From NCBI GenBank assembly GCA_963748825.1, contig CAVVKN010000002.1:167366-231365 (forward strand): DNA of 64,000 nt. The letters are read 5' to 3'. The DNA is from Methanotrichaceae archaeon (GTDB lineage Archaea > Halobacteriota > Methanosarcinia > Methanotrichales > Methanotrichaceae). How positions within the stretch are numbered: the stretch's first letter is position 1; each line of letters begins with the position of its first letter. The translations under genes and the position numbers were made by a program. Shown here piece by piece: positions 24,408 to 32,114 of the stretch. Under the pieces are notes generated by a model that was not told the DNA's origin, did not search any database, and saw only the letters and a list, made by a program, of their open reading frames with translations.

Positions 24408-25814
24408 CTAGCTCCACTTCCCATCCTTCTTCAGCCACTCGTTCATATCTGCCGCCGCAATCTTGCCCGCACCCATGGCGCTGATGACCGTGGCTCCGCC
24501 GCTTGTGATGTCTCCTCCGGCCCAGACCCCCTCCATTGTCGTTCTGCCCCGCTCGTCCACCACGAGCGTGCCCCATTTGGTGGTCTTAAGTTGTGGCGTG
24601 CTGGTGGCAATGAGGGGATTGGGCACCGTGCCTACGGCGATAACCACCGTATCCACATCGACAATATGCTCAGAGCCCTTCTTCACTCGCGGGCTTCTTC
24701 TGCCGGAAGCATCGGGCTCGCCTAGCTCCATCTCAACGACCTCCATGGCTTTTACCATGCCCCGATCGTCGCCTAAAAAGCGAGTGGGATTGGTGAGGAA
24801 GTCGAATATCACTCCCTCCTCCATGGCGTTTTCCACCTCTTCCAGACGGGCAGGCATCTCCTCACGAGAGCGACGGTAGATGACATGCACCTCATCCGCC
24901 CCCAGGCGCATGGCAGAGCGGGCCGAATCCATGGCCACGTTTCCTCCACCCACCACTGCCACCTTCTTTCCCATTTTAATAGGAGTATCGTATTCAGGGA
25001 ACTTGTAGGCCTTCATTAAATTAACCCGTGTCAGGTATTCGTTAGCGGAGTAAACACCGCTCAAGTTCTCGCCGGAAACATTGAGAAAGCGCGGCGCGCC
25101 TGCGCCTATTCCCAGAAATACTCCGTCATAGCCCCCTTTGAGCAGGCCCTCCACCTGGACCTGTCTGCCCACTACAGAGTCAAGCTCCAGATCGACTCCC
25201 AGAGACTTCACATAATCGATCTCCGATCTGACGATGCCCTTGGGCAGACGAAACTCGGGAATGCCGTAGACCAGGACGCCTCCGCCATCATGCAGAGCCT
25301 CGAAGATGGTGACGGAGTGCCCGAACTTGGCCATTTCTGCGGCCACCGTCAGCCCAGCCGGGCCTGAGCCCACCACGGCGACCCTCTTTCCGGTGGCCGC
25401 CGCGACCTCACACTTCGCCCTTTCCTGCTGGCATAGCTCCCAATCGGCCACATAACGCTCCAGACGGCCAATGGCGATGGGCGCCCCCTTCTTGCCAAGG
25501 ACGCATCGACACTCGCACTGCACCTCCTGGGGACAGACCCGGCCGCAAATTCCGGGCAGGCTGTTCTTTCTTTTGAGGGACCTCACCGCCTCTGGCATGT
25601 CCCCATCCCGCAGGGCACAAATGAAGCTGGGAATCTCCACGCCGACCGGACAGCCTTCAATGCACTTGGGCTTCTTGCATTGAATACATCTGCCCGCCTC
25701 TTCTGCCGCCTGCTCTGGACTGTAGCCCAGGGCAACCTCCTGGAAGTTGCTTTTCCTCTTTTCGGGAGACTGCTTGGGCATCTCCACCCGGTTTAAATTA
25801 ATCTTGCTTGACAT
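24408..25814 (-). CDS. sudA: Nfn large subunit / SudA (GltD-like NADPH-dependent Fe-S flavoprotein)
   Basis: CIQC..C...CP and CGRVCP..QC...C Fe-S motifs, GSGPAG, GGGNVAMD, YRR, AGGD. Confidence 0.92.
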   Translation of the reverse strand: MSSKINLNRVEMPKQSPEKRKSNFQEVALGYSPEQAAEEAGRCIQCKKPKCIEGCPVGVEIPSFICALRDGDMPEAVRSLKRKNSLPGICGRVCPQEVQCECRCVLGKKGAPIAIGRLERYVADWELCQQERAKCEVAAATGKRVAVVGSGPAGLTVAAEMAKFGHSVTIFEALHDGGGVLVYGIPEFRLPKGIVRSEIDYVKSLGVDLELDSVVGRQVQVEGLLKGGYDGVFLGIGAGAPRFLNVSGENLSGVYSANEYLTRVNLMKAYKFPEYDTPIKMGKKVAVVGGGNVAMDSARSAMRLGADEVHVIYRRSREEMPARLEEVENAMEEGVIFDFLTNPTRFLGDDRGMVKAMEVVEMELGEPDASGRRSPRVKKGSEHIVDVDTVVIAVGTVPNPLIATSTPQLKTTKWGTLVVDERGRTTMEGVWAGGDITSGGATVISAMGAGKIAAADMNEWLKKDGKWS

Positions 25815-26043
25815 CTTTTCTACACCGCGCCTCTGAGGCTAAGCTAAGATCTCTTATGGCTGATCATCCTTATGCTTGGGGATACAGATCCTCTTTTTGC
25901 CTGGGAAGAGGACCCTGGGCTTTTTGCTTCTTAATTAGCAGATTCTAGCCAGCCACTCGGCCTTTGAATATTAATAAGATTTTCCTTTCAGAGCAACCTT
26001 CTAATACAATTAATCCTCACCATTGCCAGGCGCGGTTGGGAAC

Positions 26044-28794
26044 ATGTTTGAAATTAGACTGACCATCGATGATCGAGAGGTAGTGGTCCCACAAGGTGCT
26101 ACCATACTCGATGCAGCCCGAAAAGCGGGCTCTTATGTACCAGCACTTTGCGACCACCCAGACCTAAAGCCCATCGGCTCCTGCAAGCTGTGCATCGTCT
26201 CAGTAAAAGGCCTGGATTACTATCCTACCGCCTGCAATACTCCGGCGGAAGAGGGAATGGTGGTAGAGACCAGGACAGAGGAGCTGCAGGAGATGAGAAG
26301 GCACACCCTGGAGATGCTCCTGGCACTCACCAATCATCCCACCAGCTGCCTCTTTTGCGAAAGGAAAAACGAATGCAATGACCTGCGCGAGTGCATGAGA
26401 AAGTTCCCTGTCACCGTGGGCTGCAAGTACTGCCCCAAGGACGGCGAATGCGAACTGCAGGAGGCGGTGCAGTTCGTGGGACTGGAAAACATAAGATATG
26501 AGATCTCTTTTAAGAACCTGCCTGTTTTGAGAGAGCCCTTCTTTGATCGCAATTACAGTCTCTGCATCCTCTGCGGCCGCTGCGTGCGAGCCTGTCAGGA
26601 GGTGCGCGGCGAGGGCGTCCTCACCAGCAATCCCGATTTTCACCGCATGCACTGGATAGGCCCCGAATCACTGCAGGACTCCGACTGCAAGTTCTGCGGC
26701 ACATGCGTGGATATCTGCCCCACGGGAGCCCTCTATGCCAGATCTGAGAAATGGCAAAGGCCGGAGAGGACCACCAGCACCGTCTGTCCCTACTGTGGCG
26801 TGGGCTGCCGGATAGAGGTAGGCGTCCTGGACAACCGGATTGTGAGGGTGAGAGGCAAACGAGACTGTCTGCCCAATAACGGCCAGCTCTGCGTCAAGGG
26901 TCGCTTCGGCCTCGGCTTCGTCGAGAGCCCGGAGCGGCTCACTGTGCCTCTCATCAGGAAGAACGACAAACTGGTGCCGGCGACCTGGGAGGAAGCCCTT
27001 GATCTGGTGGCCGGGAAATTGAATAGTTATAAGGGAGACAGCTTTGCCTTCCTCTCATCGGCCAAGTGCAGCAATGAGGAGAACTATCTGGCCCAGAAAT
27101 TCGCCCGGCTGGTTATGCAGACCAACAATGTAGATCACTGCGCCAGGCTCTGCCATGCTTCGACCGTCTCCGCCCTGGCCCTGGCTTTTGGCAGCGGGGC
27201 CATGACCAACTCCATTTCGGAATTATCGGACGCCGGATGCATCTTCATCATCGGCTCGAACACCAGCGAGCAGCATCCTGTCATTGCCCTCAAGATCAAA
27301 GAGGCGAAGAGGAAGGGAGCTAAGATCATAGTGGCCAATCCCCGCTGGATCGACCTGTGCAAGATCGCCGATGTCTGGCTGCGGCAGACCCCGGGAACGG
27401 ACGTGCCTCTTGCCCTGGAGATGTGCCGCGTAATCCTGGAAGAGAAGCTGATGGATGAGGATTTCATATCCCAGAGAACGGAGGGCTTCCCAGAGTTCAA
27501 GGAATCTCTCTTGAAGCTGTCCGCCTCTGACGCTGAGTGCATTACGGGTGTCAAGTCCGAACTCATACGAGACGCTGCCCGGCTCTATGCTAAGGGCAAT
27601 CCCTCTTCCATAATCTATGCAATGGGCATCACTCAGCACTCTCATGGCGTGGATAACATCTTCTCCCTGGCAAATCTGGCCATGATGACGGGCAACATCG
27701 GCAGGCCCTCCGCCGGCATCAACCCCCTGCGAGGCCAGAACAATGTGCAGGGCGCCTGCGACATGGGTGCATTGCCCAATGTCCTGCCTGCATACCAGGC
27801 GGTGACCAATCCCGATCTTCGCAAGAAGTTCGAGCAGGCCTGGGGTGCGGCTCTACCGGAAAAGCCCGGCCTCACTGTGGTGGAGTTGATGAATGCCGCC
27901 TATGAGGGCGGGGTCCAGGCCATGTACATCATGGGAGAAAACCCGGTCGTCAGCGATCCGGACTGCAGCCATGTGGTAGAGGCTTTGAAGGCCCTGGAGT
28001 TTCTGGTGGTGCAGGACATCTTCCTGTCCGAGACAGCTGCTCTGGCAGACGTGGTCCTGCCGGCAACCACCAGCCTGGAAAAGGACGGAACCTTCACCAA
28101 TACGGAGCGTCGGGTGCAGAGGATCAGAAAGGCTCTGCAGCCCGCAGGCGAGTCCATGCCTGACTGGATGATCCTGGACGCTCTGGCGGCTCGCATGGGC
28201 TGGGAGGGGCAGTTTTGCTATGACCATCCCGGACAGATCATGTCTGAGGTAGCAAAGCTTGCTCCTAGCTATGGGGGCATAAGCTATGAACGGTTGGAGG
28301 GCGATGGGCTGCAGTGGCCCTGCCCCAACCTGGAGCATGCAGGAACCGGGTACCTGCATAAAGGCCAGTTCACGAGGGGCCTTGGCAAGTTCAATGTGGT
28401 CGATTACCGGCCTTCCATGGAGCTACCTGATGAGGAATATCCCTTCATCCTCACCACAGGCAGAGTTCTCTGCCAGTATCACACCGGAACCATGACGCGA
28501 AAGGTGGGCGACCTCAACCTTCTCCGGGGCGAGGAGCTGGTGGAGATGAATCCACAAGACGCCCTCACTCTGGGTATTGTTGACGGCGAGCTGATCGAGG
28601 TAACCTCCCGCCGGGGATCTGTTAAGGCCAAAGCCAAGACCACAGAAAAGTCGCCTGCCGGCGTGGTCTTTATGACCTTCCATTTCTCTGAGACGCCCAC
28701 CAACGTCCTTACCAATCCTGCCTTAGATCCCATCGCCAAGATCCCGGAGCTAAAGGTCTGTGCCGTGAAGCTGAATAAGATTAGAGGAGGCTAG
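26044..28794 (+). CDS. fdhF: Mo/W formate dehydrogenase alpha subunit (Cys type) with N-terminal [2Fe-2S] and [4Fe-4S] domains
   Basis: CPYCGVGC..LCVKGRFG, active-site HCARLCH, LRGQNNVQG, GTFTNTERR; N-terminal C..GSCKLC..AC, CILCGRCVRAC, CKFCGTCVDIC. Confidence 0.95.
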   Translation: MFEIRLTIDDREVVVPQGATILDAARKAGSYVPALCDHPDLKPIGSCKLCIVSVKGLDYYPTACNTPAEEGMVVETRTEELQEMRRHTLEMLLALTNHPTSCLFCERKNECNDLRECMRKFPVTVGCKYCPKDGECELQEAVQFVGLENIRYEISFKNLPVLREPFFDRNYSLCILCGRCVRACQEVRGEGVLTSNPDFHRMHWIGPESLQDSDCKFCGTCVDICPTGALYARSEKWQRPERTTSTVCPYCGVGCRIEVGVLDNRIVRVRGKRDCLPNNGQLCVKGRFGLGFVESPERLTVPLIRKNDKLVPATWEEALDLVAGKLNSYKGDSFAFLSSAKCSNEENYLAQKFARLVMQTNNVDHCARLCHASTVSALALAFGSGAMTNSISELSDAGCIFIIGSNTSEQHPVIALKIKEAKRKGAKIIVANPRWIDLCKIADVWLRQTPGTDVPLALEMCRVILEEKLMDEDFISQRTEGFPEFKESLLKLSASDAECITGVKSELIRDAARLYAKGNPSSIIYAMGITQHSHGVDNIFSLANLAMMTGNIGRPSAGINPLRGQNNVQGACDMGALPNVLPAYQAVTNPDLRKKFEQAWGAALPEKPGLTVVELMNAAYEGGVQAMYIMGENPVVSDPDCSHVVEALKALEFLVVQDIFLSETAALADVVLPATTSLEKDGTFTNTERRVQRIRKALQPAGESMPDWMILDALAARMGWEGQFCYDHPGQIMSEVAKLAPSYGGISYERLEGDGLQWPCPNLEHAGTGYLHKGQFTRGLGKFNVVDYRPSMELPDEEYPFILTTGRVLCQYHTGTMTRKVGDLNLLRGEELVEMNPQDALTLGIVDGELIEVTSRRGSVKAKAKTTEKSPAGVVFMTFHFSETPTNVLTNPALDPIAKIPELKVCAVKLNKIRGG

Positions 28795-28796
28795 AG

Positions 28797-29723
28797 ATGT
28801 ACGAGATCGTAACCAAGGAGACCGTAGCTCCCAATATCATACACATGAAGTTTAAAGCTCCCAAGATTGCGAGCACTGCCAGACCGGGTCAGTTTGTGAT
28901 CATTAGAGTGGACGAGAAAGGAGAGAGGATACCTATGGGCCTGGCCGGCTGGGACGAAAAGGATGGCACTGTGGACATTGTCTTCTACGTTCTGGGGACC
29001 AGCACCGCCAAGCTGTCCACTATGAAAGAAGGTGAATGTGTGACCAACATCGCCGGCCCACTGGGAACGCCGACAAAGATCGAAAACTTCGGCAGAGTCA
29101 TCTGTGCTTGCGGATGCTTTGGGGTCGGGCCGACACTACCGCTCGTAAAGGCCCTCAAAGAGAAGGGCAACTACGTGGTAACCGTTGTGGAAGGCCGCGG
29201 TCCGGATTTCGTCTTCTGGATAGACAAGCTCAAGGAGTACAGCGATGAGGTTCATGTCGTTACAGGCTGCGGCAAGACTGCCTGGGCCAATGACTTCATA
29301 GAGCAAGAACTGCAGTCAGGAAAGGGAGTCGACAGGATATTCGCTCATGGTTGCCCTTTCATGATGAAGGTCTCCTCGGACGCCTCCCATGCCTCGGGAG
29401 TGGAGACGATTGTCAGCCTTACGCCCATCATGGTGGACGGCACGGGCATGTGCGGTGCCTGTCGAGTGGAAGTGGCCGGCAAGACCAAGTTCGCCTGCGT
29501 GGACGGCCCGGATTTTCGTGGCGATCAGGTCAACTGGGATGGACTGGTTCTGCGACTGCGCCAGCTCATCCCTGAAGAGGATAAATCCTTCAACATCTGG
29601 GAAAGAGATAACTGGCATAAGCTGATGGACTGCCGGCACAAGAAGAGCTTCAATCCGGCAAAAAGAAAGCTTATCGACGAGCTGGAGCATCCGGAAGGCG
29701 ATTGCAAGTTAGCAGGGGCTTGA
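28797..29723 (+). CDS. sudB: Nfn small subunit / SudB (PyrK-like FAD and [2Fe-2S] protein)
   Basis: PGQFVI..GERIP, GPLG, MVDGTGMCGACRV...FACVDGPDF; starts 2 nt after the fdh stop. Confidence 0.9.
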   Translation: MYEIVTKETVAPNIIHMKFKAPKIASTARPGQFVIIRVDEKGERIPMGLAGWDEKDGTVDIVFYVLGTSTAKLSTMKEGECVTNIAGPLGTPTKIENFGRVICACGCFGVGPTLPLVKALKEKGNYVVTVVEGRGPDFVFWIDKLKEYSDEVHVVTGCGKTAWANDFIEQELQSGKGVDRIFAHGCPFMMKVSSDASHASGVETIVSLTPIMVDGTGMCGACRVEVAGKTKFACVDGPDFRGDQVNWDGLVLRLRQLIPEEDKSFNIWERDNWHKLMDCRHKKSFNPAKRKLIDELEHPEGDCKLAGA

Positions 29724-29956
29724 TTATACTGAGGATTGGCCATCAATGTGAAGTTTTTTCATAACCCCTTTATTTTTTCATAACTTTTCATAATTTATCT
29801 GCCAACCGCAAACCTTTTAGGCGATATGCCGGCAAGCAATTGCCAATTCTGCAGGCTGCCCAGAAAAGCGAGCCGCGATAGCCTCTACAAAACCATCGCA
29901 AAAATGCCGGCTGTTTCGGGATAGACTTGTCGGGCTGCCTGCTCTGGAGGGAGATT

Positions 29957-30878
29957 ATGGCATTCAAAGTTCCCGCTGATATCGCTAAGGCAGCCATTGC
30001 TGCCGGATGCACGAAATGCAATATAACATGGCAAAAGCTACTGGTGCTGGGCTTTTTAGCCGGAGCCTACATCGCCTTTGGAGCTCTTTTAAGCGAGATT
30101 GTGGCTGGAGGCCTTTCCAACGGCACCATCACTGCCCCGGACGGCGCCATCTGGAAGATCGCTCTGCCTGGGGGCCTAGTCAAGTTCGCTGCCGGAGCGG
30201 TATTTCCAGTGGGCCTGATGCTGGTAGTAATCGCTGGCTCAGAGCTATTCACAGGAAACTGCATGTTTGCGCCCATTAGCATTCTCAACGGCGAGGCCAC
30301 CGTCAAGGGCCTGATGAAAAATTGGTCGCTGGTTTATGTGGGCAATTTTCTGGGATCTATTTTCGTGGCCTTTTTCCTGGCTTACCTGTGTGGATTTTTC
30401 GATAACCTGCCCTGGGCAGGATGGGCGGCAACCGTAGCCAATACCAAGTGCGGCCTGGACTTCGAAACTGCGTTTCTGCGGGGAATAGGCTGCAACTGGC
30501 TGGTCTGCCTGGCTGTATGGCTGGCTATAGGCTGCTGAAGACGTGATCGGCAAGATCTTTGCCTGCTGGTTTCCCATCATGGCATTCGTCGCCATCGGCT
30601 TTGAGCACAGCGTGGCCAATATGTTCTTCATTCCCCTGGGCATCTTTGCCGCCAACAATCCGGCAATAGCCGCCAAGCTGGCCACAGCGGGCGTGTCTAC
30701 CACAAACCTGGCCGGAAGCGATGGGTGGTATAACTTCTTCATCACCAACCTGATTCCCGTTACCCTCGGCAACATTGTAGGAGCGGCGCTCTTCGTGGCG
30801 GCACTCTACTGGTATGTCTACCTCAGAGGACCGCTGTGCGTGCTCAAACCCGAGAAGACCAAGACCGCCAAGAAATAA
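29957..30878 (+). CDS. fdhC: Formate/nitrite transporter (FdhC-like), split by a 1-nt frameshift
   Basis: [26 protein letters not shown], then [18 protein letters not shown] in another frame; removing one G at 30530-30531 restores [12 protein letters not shown]. Confidence 0.88.
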
Positions 30879-30945: not shown

Positions 30946-31389
30946 TTACGTTTTCCTGAGAAGCTCAGCTACGTCTTCCAGGGAATTCTTCTCTCGCAAA
31001 GCAGTCAGCGCAGGAGGCGATTCCTGAAACAGTTCCAGTGCATTGAAGAATCTGTCCAGCACATCTCCTCTGTAGGTAGGAACCAGGAAGATGTGGGTAT
31101 GTGGTATTCTCCGGCCGCGGGCATACATGCAGACGAATTCGGGCTTCAAGGCCTTCATCATCTTCTCTGCCACTATCTTTGCCACCCGAAAGAGGCTGGC
31201 ATTCTCCTCTAGTGAGAGCTCATGCCACCATGGCACGTGCCTCTTGGGAATGACCAGGCAATGCCCTTTTGAGAAGGGATTGATATCGAGTATGGCTAAA
31301 GAGAGTTCATCCTCATAGATCTTGCAGCAAGGTGCCTTGTCTTCGATAATATCGCAGAAAATACAACAGTTCTTAGTGTCTTCGACCAT
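30946..31389 (-). CDS. HIT family protein
   Basis: CIFCDII, AILDINP..GHCLVIPKRH, IPHTHIFLVP. Confidence 0.9.
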   Translation of the reverse strand: MVEDTKNCCIFCDIIEDKAPCCKIYEDELSLAILDINPFSKGHCLVIPKRHVPWWHELSLEENASLFRVAKIVAEKMMKALKPEFVCMYARGRRIPHTHIFLVPTYRGDVLDRFFNALELFQESPPALTALREKNSLEDVAELLRKT

Positions 31390-31470
31390 AAAGCCACATC
31401 CGGAATCCTTTAGTGACGCAATAGCTCTAATCAGCACGACTTTATATAGAAAACTAATGTTCTTAGCGGT

Positions 31471-32114
31471 ATGGTTGAAATGAAAGTTGATGTTGAGGAA
31501 GAGTTGATAAAGGAAGCTAGAGAATACTCTGAAGATCATCAACCAACACCGGAAGATATTGAGTTTATAAAAGAATGGGAAAAACGAACTAAACATGTTT
31601 GCAAACCTTGTTGGGAGTTAAAGTATTGCCCTTATGGCCCATTGGTTGAGAATTTTCCCTTACTCGGTCCAACGAAAAAGGAAGCGATTGAGCATAATGA
31701 TTTTTTAAAAGAACAACTCCAAAAAGGAGCATATACTGGTTGGAGAAAGCAATCGATTGAGGAAGATGTACTAAACTTCGATCCTAATGAATATCCTGAA
31801 GAATACAAAAAAGAAGAAATTGAACAATGCTGTGATGTATTCGGACACATTTGTCCTACCTTTTTGTAAATGAACCTCTTACGGAAACACTCGAAATGAG
31901 AAGAATTTCCAGAAACATTGATAGGGCTACAGCAATCCGTGTTGTGAGGAGAGATAATTCCACTTGTCAGATTTGCGGGAAAAACTTGTTAGATAAAGAT
32001 ATCGAACTTGATCATAAAATACCTTGGTCGAAAGGAGGAGTTACGGAAGAAAATAATTTGCAGGTAACATGTTTTGATTGTAATAGGAAAAAGAGTGCTG
32101 AATTCCATCCTTAG
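31471..32114 (+). CDS. HNH endonuclease with Cys-rich N-terminal domain, split by frameshift
   Basis: RDNSTCQICG..ELDHKIP..GG...NLQVTCFDCN; adding one T to the T5 run 31861-31865 fuses both ORFs; AT-rich. Confidence 0.82.

Follow-up and report, generated by a model that had tools for sequence, protein, structure and literature searches.

A formate dehydrogenase gene flanked by nfnB and nfnA in a Methanotrichaceae archaeon: a candidate module linking formate to NADP(H)

Gene organization of the locus

The stretch studied here is a window of 64,000 nucleotides from a Methanotrichaceae archaeon (GCA_963748825.1, contig CAVVKN010000002.1), in which a cluster at positions 24408-30878 brings together a formate dehydrogenase (FDH) gene, fdhA, the two genes of an NfnAB-type flavoprotein pair, and a formate channel gene. 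The assembly, labelled G000 below, has 2.88 Mb in 25 contigs. The nfnB gene is divergent from fdhA, with a 208-bp spacer between them, nfnA follows the stop codon of fdhA after a gap of only 2 nucleotides, and the channel gene comes after nfnA. Thus, nfnA and nfnB are oriented on opposite strands with fdhA in between, and the single-operon nfnA-nfnB arrangement is not found in the window. The features are as follows, with residue numbers throughout counted from the TTG at 26023:

24408-25814, minus strand: nfnB, 468 amino acids; Fer4_20 and Pyr_redox_2 domains (Pfam), TIGR01316
25998-26015, plus strand: conserved 18-nucleotide element CTTCTAATACAATTAATC, from the alignment of relatives
26023-28794, plus strand: fdhA, 923 amino acids from TTG; TIGR01591
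28797-29723, plus strand: nfnA, 308 amino acids; NF004862
29927-30538, plus strand: fdhC/focA-type formate channel gene, 5' piece; PF01226 positions 2-169 of 240
30543-30878, plus strand: fdhC/focA-type formate channel gene, 3' piece, in the next frame; PF01226 positions 174-240 of 240

All the gene calls of the original prediction for this DNA hold, including the divergent nfnB and the 2-nucleotide gap, except that the channel gene is split over two frames. A scan of open reading frames (ORFs) and Pfam domains revealed no FrhB/FdhB-family gene and no NuoE/NuoF-type gene in the cluster. In the whole genome, five fdhA genes score over the TIGR01591 cut-off and no FdhB gene lies beside any of the five; the FrhB family is represented by two genes, one each on contigs C10 and C12 and neither of them near any fdhA, and the only NuoE-NuoF pair, on C12, is not next to one. 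The earlier claim that the enzyme has no FdhB or NuoF-type subunit is therefore right for the cluster, and right for the genome only in the sense that none is linked to any fdhA, since such genes do exist on C10 and C12.

NfnB and NfnA

NfnB scored 599 bits against TIGR01316, the model for NADPH-dependent glutamate synthase and NfnB (cut-off 472), and aligned over its full length with NfnB of T. maritima (4ylf_B; E 1.5e-168, about two-thirds identity). From the alignments with 4ylf_B and 5jca_L, the arginine of the PEFRLP motif and the CPQEVQCE motif are both kept. This arginine bonds the N5 of the bifurcating flavin adenine dinucleotide (FAD), and arginine and CPQEVQCE together have been tied to bifurcation by NfnB, according to the accessible part of PMC10482914. 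NfnB is, by its predicted sites, a GltD-like protein of the NfnB/NfnL type for FAD, NADP(H) and two [4Fe-4S] clusters, with the canonical, bifurcating-type features kept. It is encoded by the only NfnB-type gene in the genome, the single match over the cut-off.

The companion NfnA scored 326 bits against NF004862 (cut-off 220) and matched NfnI-S of P. furiosus (5jca_S) with E 1.2e-71, the stretches common to solved NfnS proteins being retained outside the changes described below. Its [2Fe-2S] motif, formed by D214, C219, C222 and C234, is invariant among 30 orthologues. The dinucleotide loop, G-G-G-V-G in 5jca_S and 4ylf_A, reads C103-A-C105-G-C107-F-G in the window protein, and two other stretches of the solved NfnS proteins, DGS(Y/A)G and VGP, become G-C158-G and G-C186-P, respectively. 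None of the same 30 orthologues departs from C105, C107 or C186, conservation of C103 and C158 is at least 90%, and the protein ends in a tail of about 35 residues with a conserved final cysteine. The cysteine changes are confined to NfnA copies linked to an FDH: they are absent from the solved NfnS proteins and from the orphan copy on C10, which is the other of the two NfnA-type genes in the genome, keeps the canonical dinucleotide loop and scores 374 bits. In an AlphaFold2 model with a mean confidence (pLDDT) of 78, the cysteines lie at strand ends (strands 100-105, 151-155 and 180-184), and confidence is low for residues 256-308, the tail. From the model, the cysteine-bearing loops appear to be those that would hold the dinucleotide. 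Because the glycine-rich loop is rewritten with cysteines, NAD binding by NfnA looks doubtful; the idea that the cysteines make a metal site instead draws on their conservation and secondary-structure placement.

FdhA and the conserved element upstream

FdhA scored 834.3 bits against TIGR01591 (cut-off 666.25). As predicted from the letters, extra Fe-S domains occupy its N-terminus: Fer2_4, NADH-G_4Fe-4S_3 and Fer4_Nqo3 precede the molybdopterin domains in the Pfam annotation. The protein matched FdsA of R. capsulatus (6tg9_A) over its full length (residues 11-918, E 5.7e-216), and the catalytic domain alone (residues 252-920) found its best solved match in the F420-dependent FDH 9t1s_L (E 2.2e-224). 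C377-H378 and R570 are invariant across 29 FdhA orthologues; from E. coli FdhH, we take these to be the Cys/Sec metal ligand followed by His, and the catalytic Arg in GQNNVQG. The ligands of one [2Fe-2S] motif (C43, C54, C57, C71) and of five [4Fe-4S]-type motifs (H105/C109/C112/C118; C124/C134/C137/C143; C181-C191; C222-C232; C255/C258/C262/C290) are likewise invariant across the 29 proteins. FdhA is an FdsA-type catalytic subunit of a cysteine-type FDH with a Mo/W-bis(pyranopterin guanine dinucleotide) site, its active site predicted to be intact and its Fe-S N-terminus NuoG-like. Selenocysteine in the window FdhA was considered and rejected because the ORF is open, with a cysteine codon at position 377.

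The true start of fdhA is likely the ATG at 26044, as suggested by the conservation of the DNA upstream of it. The element CTTCTAATACAATTAATC ends 28 nucleotides before this ATG and is identical in five of the six aligned relatives, with two changes in the sixth (G047). It lies within a stretch of about 45 nucleotides that is near-invariant across genera; the remaining nfnB-fdhA spacer is unalignable. At zero mismatches it occurs only once in the genome, and it stands ahead of every copy of the long fdhA, that is, the form with the NuoG-like N-terminus, in the loci of genera g1, g2, g9 and g16. The element is probably a core promoter or an operator. A search of the nfnB-fdhA spacer against Rfam yielded only chance-level matches (E 0.28 or worse). 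A possible leader hairpin, CAACC/GGTTG, was dropped because, judged by eye, the changes in G016 do not compensate each other.

Conservation within the family and phylum

NfnA, FdhA residues 1-250 and NfnB served as queries against 61 family genomes, with at least 63% identity as the cut-off for an NfnA orthologue. An nfnA orthologue was present in 46 of the 61; a long fdhA lies directly upstream of it on the same strand in 43 of these 46, and nfnB belongs to the same cluster in 36, three more being unassessable at a contig end. In the fetched loci of the relatives, the ORFs of fdhA and nfnA either adjoin directly or share a few bases. The original prediction had named a lack of conserved adjacency as the result that would speak against it; the adjacency is conserved in the family, and the trio recurs in bacterial metagenome-assembled genomes (MAGs), as described below.

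The arrangement varies around this core. Some loci have the gene order of the window with an intact channel gene, and others have nfnB-fdhC divergent from fdhA-nfnA; all genes are on a single strand as fdhC-fdhA-nfnA-nfnB in G046 (L029) and as nfnA-nfnB-fdhA in G059. Many genomes of the window's own genus (L026, L044, L045, L047, L048, L049) have two tandem long fdhA genes between nfnB and nfnA, each carrying the conserved upstream element, and the window has one copy. Of 30 family loci, 22 have an FNT-family gene within the stretch retrieved. Some genomes of the family also hold a separate canonical nfnA-nfnB operon.

In G049 (L027 6372-6670), only a degenerate promoter-like element and about 40 fdhA codons remain between nfnB and nfnA. 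The remnant shows a natural deletion of fdhA in G049, one that has left nfnA behind the putative fdhA promoter. Two loci of other family genera (L033 2154-7680, L034 4515-10040) contain, in a row, NuoE, NuoF, a NuoG-like protein of about 740 residues whose molybdopterin domain is reduced, and an NfnA-like protein, with no nfnB beside them.

Across a phylum sample of 301 genomes, the long FdhA N-terminus (E <=1e-45) was detected only in the family (8 of 8) and in one other genus, where the homologue is shorter, with about 750 residues. Among public sequencing runs, the best word share was 0.45 and none reaches half. Contigs from two RNA libraries (X15, X16), derived from relatives, span nfnB, the fdhA-nfnA junction and parts of fdhA with about 95-96% identity; as contigs do not prove transcripts and carry-over of DNA is possible, they give a weak hint of transcription.

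Related gene strings and fusions beyond the family

Two further samples, 80 metagenome loci and 80 genome loci, were picked by their likeness to Nfn-linked FdhA, such that the counts from them are occurrences and not frequencies. Of the metagenome loci, 62 have at least 900 nucleotides downstream of fdhA; nfnA follows fdhA directly in 12 of them, with nfnB next in 10 of the 12. The upstream region was assessable in six of the 12 and held NuoE-NuoF in four, leaving L079 and L088, with fdhA-nfnA-nfnB and no NuoEF within 5-8 kb upstream. Seven further metagenome loci have nfnA-nfnB farther downstream of fdhA. In the genome sample, nfnA is directly downstream in 13 of the 80 loci, four from Methanotrichaceae and nine from bacterial MAGs, and all nine bacterial loci read fdhA-nfnA-nfnB. 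No NuoEF lies within 6 kb in Desulfobacteraceae L142 and L146 or in Dehalococcoidales L166. The last is the nearest trio from outside the family (identity of 69% for FdhA, 60% for NfnA and 66.5% for NfnB), and its NfnA also has the CACGCFG loop. The presence of this string in MAGs of both Dehalococcoidia and Desulfobacteraceae points to the module as a widespread, so far undescribed component of redox balancing in anaerobes.

The C-H and R motifs are kept in most of the metagenome relatives of FdhA. In many of these relatives a stop codon falls exactly at column 377, and they are for this reason read as selenocysteine forms. Among the proteins of the collection that are longer than NfnA, its best homologue is a fusion of a long FdhA with NfnA, of 1229 residues (P0001). 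In another type of fusion, a GltD/NfnB-like domain is inserted after the [2Fe-2S] domain of FdhA, giving polypeptides of 1250-1349 residues with C-H and R intact (L069 7986-12035, L128 2245-6294, L138 2-3754). Such GltD-inserted polypeptides were also seen at L160, L161, L164, L168 and L174-L176, the whole set spanning 1250-1366 residues and coming mostly from Dehalococcoidia MAGs; they are candidates for one-chain, NADPH-linked formate dehydrogenases. Related strings in which the FDH-like scaffold is catalytically dead, whether NuoEF is present or not, occur at L033, L034, L063, L099, L100 and L102; in contrast to these, the window has a predicted live FDH and no NuoEF.

Comparison with known systems

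The window genes resemble several described systems without coinciding with any of them. With NfnAB (NfnSL) they share an NfnB similar to 4ylf_B over its full length, with its arginine and cluster motifs, and an NfnA with the D-C-C-C [2Fe-2S] motif of 5jca_S; however, the genes are split and divergent with an FDH gene between them, and NfnA lacks the GGGxG loop and has extra conserved cysteines at 158 and 186 and a tail ending in cysteine. The NAD+-dependent FdsABG(D) of R. capsulatus (6TG9) shares with the window FdhA the NuoG-like Fe-S domain at the N-terminus and the cysteine-type active site, but in the window no FdsB/NuoF or FdsG/NuoE gene adjoins fdhA, and nfnA and nfnB flank it instead. 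The StnABC/NfnABC (Nfn-Bfu) enzymes (8OH5, 9BOV, 9N5U) connect an NADPH module of the GltD/NfnB type with a NuoG/FdhF-like Fe-S chain, as described in the accessible part of PMC10482914, and both NfnB and FdhA of the window match chains of these enzymes, StnC (8oh5_C) among them. These enzymes have a dead FdhF-like domain, a NuoEF-type bifurcating core and no NfnA homologue, whereas the window has a predicted live FDH, no NuoEF, and an NfnA.

Among formate dehydrogenases, HylABC-FdhF2 of Clostridium acidurici has been proposed to couple formate with pyridine nucleotide and ferredoxin (Table 1 of PMC5861303); its flavin module is of the HydBC/NuoEF type, with flavin mononucleotide and NAD, and that of the window is of the NfnAB type, with FAD and presumably NADP. 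The F420-dependent FdhAB of methanogens (9T1S) is the best solved match to the catalytic domain alone, but it has no NuoG-like N-terminus and needs an FdhB, and none is found beside the window fdhA. FdhAB of Moorella thermoacetica is a characterized NADP-linked FDH. Its beta subunit is GltD-like. By its general make-up, the Moorella enzyme differs in having two subunits, selenocysteine and no NfnA-type subunit, in contrast to the two flavoprotein genes flanking the window fdhA.

Full-text literature searches, which covered journals other than those on subscription, found no description of an FDH-NfnAB enzyme, and the accessible parts of PMC6405883, PMC5861303, PMC9304861, PMC9012536 and PMC12072023 contain no account of one. 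The use of formate by Methanothrix has been called controversial, and a different fdhA cluster, with hdrABC, is expressed (Nobu et al. 2020, PMC7382037, accessible part); the same fdhA-hdrABC arrangement was also found at L035. The supplement of Zhou et al. (PMC10470525, accessible part) describes, in a cultured relative, an operon of fdhA and a 'FAD binding ferredoxin reductase' and suggests that it reduces F420. Its arrangement is that of genus g6 (L030), and nfnB is unmentioned in this part of the source. In Supplementary Table S3 of the same paper, the operon is expressed at 4.4-7.3x (one fdhA), 0.9-2.2x ('FAD binding ferredoxin reductase') and 1.8-4.1x the median reads per kilobase per million (RPKM).

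A proposed FdhA-NfnA-NfnB complex and its alternatives

We propose, with a probability of about 0.5, that FdhA, NfnA and NfnB form one complex that couples CO2/formate to NADP(H), probably together with ferredoxin. A single complex is favoured because fdhA and nfnA are tightly packed, because the trio recurs in unrelated lineages, and because of the fusions and the Stn precedent. Then nfnB, fdhA and nfnA, plus fdhC where intact, would be one functional module encoding a cytoplasmic formate dehydrogenase/CO2 reductase that has neither an F420-binding FdhB nor a NuoEF (FdsBG/HylBC) diaphorase and is wired to an NfnAB-type pair. The Fe-S chain of FdhA and NfnA (FAD, [2Fe-2S]) would conduct electrons between the Mo/W centre and the flavin of NfnB, where NADP(H) binds. 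CO2/formate would take the place held by NAD+/NADH in canonical Nfn, and ferredoxin would still react at the two NfnB [4Fe-4S] clusters, such that the net reaction would be formate + reduced ferredoxin + 2 NADP+ <-> CO2 + oxidised ferredoxin + 2 NADPH. FdhC would carry formate across the membrane. In vivo the reaction could run in either direction, as formate oxidation for NADPH, or as CO2 reduction to supply formate to PurP-type purine enzymes or to dispose of electrons; the FdhD gene and the two PurP-family genes (formate-dependent purine synthesis) of the genome count in favour of the proposal.

The original prediction of an Fdh-NfnAB complex is thus retained in outline, given the conserved adjacency, the recurrent trio, the fusions and the lack of FdhB beside fdhA; what became doubtful is the part in which NfnA keeps NAD, since its loop is rewritten. 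FdhA is placed on the NfnA side and ferredoxin at the NfnB clusters because NfnB is bifurcating-like and NfnA has lost the NAD loop, and this assignment of branches is the weakest step of the scheme. An earlier version, with formate in the place of ferredoxin and NAD kept on NfnA, is possible. From standard potentials, we estimate that with formate at the micromolar levels of methanogenic habitats, the potential of the CO2/formate couple moves up towards that of NAD, which would make the branch scheme workable. Going beyond the complex itself, we tentatively suggest, as something appreciably less probable, a new bifurcating class: an Nfn in which a live FDH has replaced the NAD(H) site, the pocket of NfnA having become a cysteine-ligated metal or Fe-S site (C105, C107, C158, C186) that receives the FdhA wire, with formate and ferredoxin coupled to NADP(H). 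Such a class would belong to the regular equipment of every major Methanothrix lineage, and gene transfer would account for its presence in Dehalococcoidia and Desulfobacteraceae.

Several observations weigh against a single bifurcating complex. At the standard potential of formate, the proposed branch assignment would need no bifurcation. NfnB is about equally similar to NfnB of T. maritima and to FDH-linked bacterial NfnB, showing no sign of specialization, and the more canonical orphan NfnA encoded on C10 could be its partner. In genus g6, fdhA and nfnA stay paired in all seven genomes, but nfnB lies on a different contig or, as in the complete genome G031, at a distance of 250 kb; conversely, G049, G001 and G052 have nfnB and nfnA intact side by side with no fdhA between, from which it appears that NfnAB also works, or persists, without FdhA. 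P0001, the only FdhA::NfnA fusion that was read, carries Asp and Lys at the positions of the catalytic His and Arg; in L071, which matches its first 303 residues at 100%, the FdhA-type gene comes after genes for NuoE and for a NuoF::GltD protein. In this assembly, the channel gene is interrupted. No argument either way comes from a structure prediction of NfnB 9-462 and NfnA 1-308 with an FdhA fragment only (8-245, without the Mo domain and without controls), which gave interface scores (ipSAE) of 0.09 and 0.01 against a mark of 0.32.

Some of these observations would be expected if the enzyme consisted of FdhA and NfnA alone, with NfnA as the FAD/[2Fe-2S] subunit delivering electrons to NAD(P)+ or another acceptor, and if NfnB paired with the C10 orphan as an ordinary Nfn transhydrogenase, being nearby only through insertion of fdhA into an old nfn locus. 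The pair fdhA-nfnA is the most conserved of the locus (43 of 46) and stands without a nearby nfnB in genus g6, and the orphan nfnA outscores the window copy (374 versus 326 bits). Short FdhA paralogues pair with PyrK-like NAD_binding_1/DHODB_Fe-S proteins (L013, L037), and strings of NuoE, NuoF, NuoG-like and NfnA genes exist without nfnB in other genera of the family (L033, L034). Nevertheless, we consider this two-subunit enzyme unlikely: with GGGxG changed to C-A-C-G-C-F-G, direct binding of NAD(P)H by NfnA is doubtful; nfnB is adjacent in 36 of 46 genomes, shares its strand with the other genes in G046, and comes next after nfnA in 10 of the 12 metagenome loci and all 9 bacterial genome loci that have nfnA directly behind fdhA; and G049, G001 and G052 keep nfnB beside nfnA in spite of having no fdhA between. 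The association might instead be metabolic only, with a ferredoxin-dependent FdhA and a free, ordinary NfnAB that makes NADPH from reduced ferredoxin and NADH, in which case a shared pathway would explain the co-location and co-regulation. A fully canonical NfnB, the persistence of NfnAB after loss of fdhA in G049, and N-terminal [2Fe-2S] and 4Fe-4S domains of FdhA that could serve free ferredoxin are all compatible with it, and Nfn does seem to be used on its own in the family because some genomes carry the separate canonical operon. The 2-nucleotide gap, and the abutting or overlapping genes of the relatives, the natural fusions of FdhA-type proteins with NfnA and GltD-like domains, and the restriction of the NfnA changes to FDH-linked copies make such loose coupling decidedly unlikely.

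A link to F420 seems very improbable, although it has been proposed for the like-arranged operon of Methanothrix thermoacetophila (supplement of PMC10470525, accessible part). There, a 'FdhB-like ferredoxin reductase' would bind F420 at its flavin site and the F420H2 would go to methanogenesis, and the best solved match of the FdhA catalytic domain is indeed the F420-dependent 9t1s_L. The protein in question belongs, however, to the NfnS/PyrK family, the Pfam scan of NfnA shows neither FrhB_FdhB_N nor FrhB_FdhB_C, and the two FrhB-family genes of the genome are located elsewhere. To our knowledge, the FrhB/FdhB family is the only one known to bind F420 in FDH and hydrogenase.

Methanothrix species are among the main biological sources of methane and are regarded as strictly acetate-using. 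If the proposed complex exists, it would give them a concrete route between formate, NADPH and ferredoxin that bypasses F420 and NuoEF and may explain their handling of formate; it would also be a fourth wiring of FDH to pyridine nucleotide, beside the FdsBG, HylBC and Moorella beta-subunit routes. Should the bifurcating class be real, obligate acetate-users would gain a regulated uptake or release of formate electrons. The strains with natural loss of fdhA between nfnB and nfnA offer a ready comparison.

The formate channel gene and its neighbour

The PF01226 profile is spread over two window ORFs (positions 2-169 and 174-240), so no single ORF covers the whole profile. Compared with G055, G051 and G033, the window has one extra base near 30532 (side region 30528-30538), and the resulting frameshift creates the TGA that ends the 5' piece; in the relatives, the channel gene is one intact ORF of 261-354 amino acids. 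A single near-identical metagenome contig, with a depth of only 4.5, is without the extra base. As the base is extra with respect to the relatives and missing from this low-depth contig, the gene is either a pseudogene or the product of an assembly error. It is the sole FNT gene of the genome. Just past it, at 30946-31596, there is a HIT-family gene whose position is kept in L026, L041, L047 and L048, with no evident link to the cluster.

Other fdhA loci and the NuoEF string of the genome

Other fdhA genes of the genome keep varied company. On contig C2 (L012 7531-15491), a short fdhA (685 amino acids) sits in a string with glnA and a split gltB (GATase_2, Glu_synthase, GXGXG), followed by two small 4Fe-4S proteins; this string may encode a formate-linked glutamate synthase. 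A short fdhA on C5 (L013 6135-9957) is followed by a 390-residue PyrK-like NAD_binding_1/DHODB_Fe-S protein, and in relatives (L037, L030) a short fdhA occurs with a Fer4_22 protein and a PyrK-like protein, a set that resembles the beta and gamma subunits of sulfhydrogenase. A short fdhA on C22 (L011 8292-10946) has a TOBE-domain gene and fmdE next to it, in the vicinity of genes that resemble those of formylmethanofuran dehydrogenase. Finally, on C12 (L016 3511-7576), genes for a NuoE-like protein, a NuoF-like protein and a NuoG-like [2Fe-2S]/4Fe-4S/FrhB fusion of 493 residues lie in a row, forming a candidate Bfu-type enzyme linked to F420.

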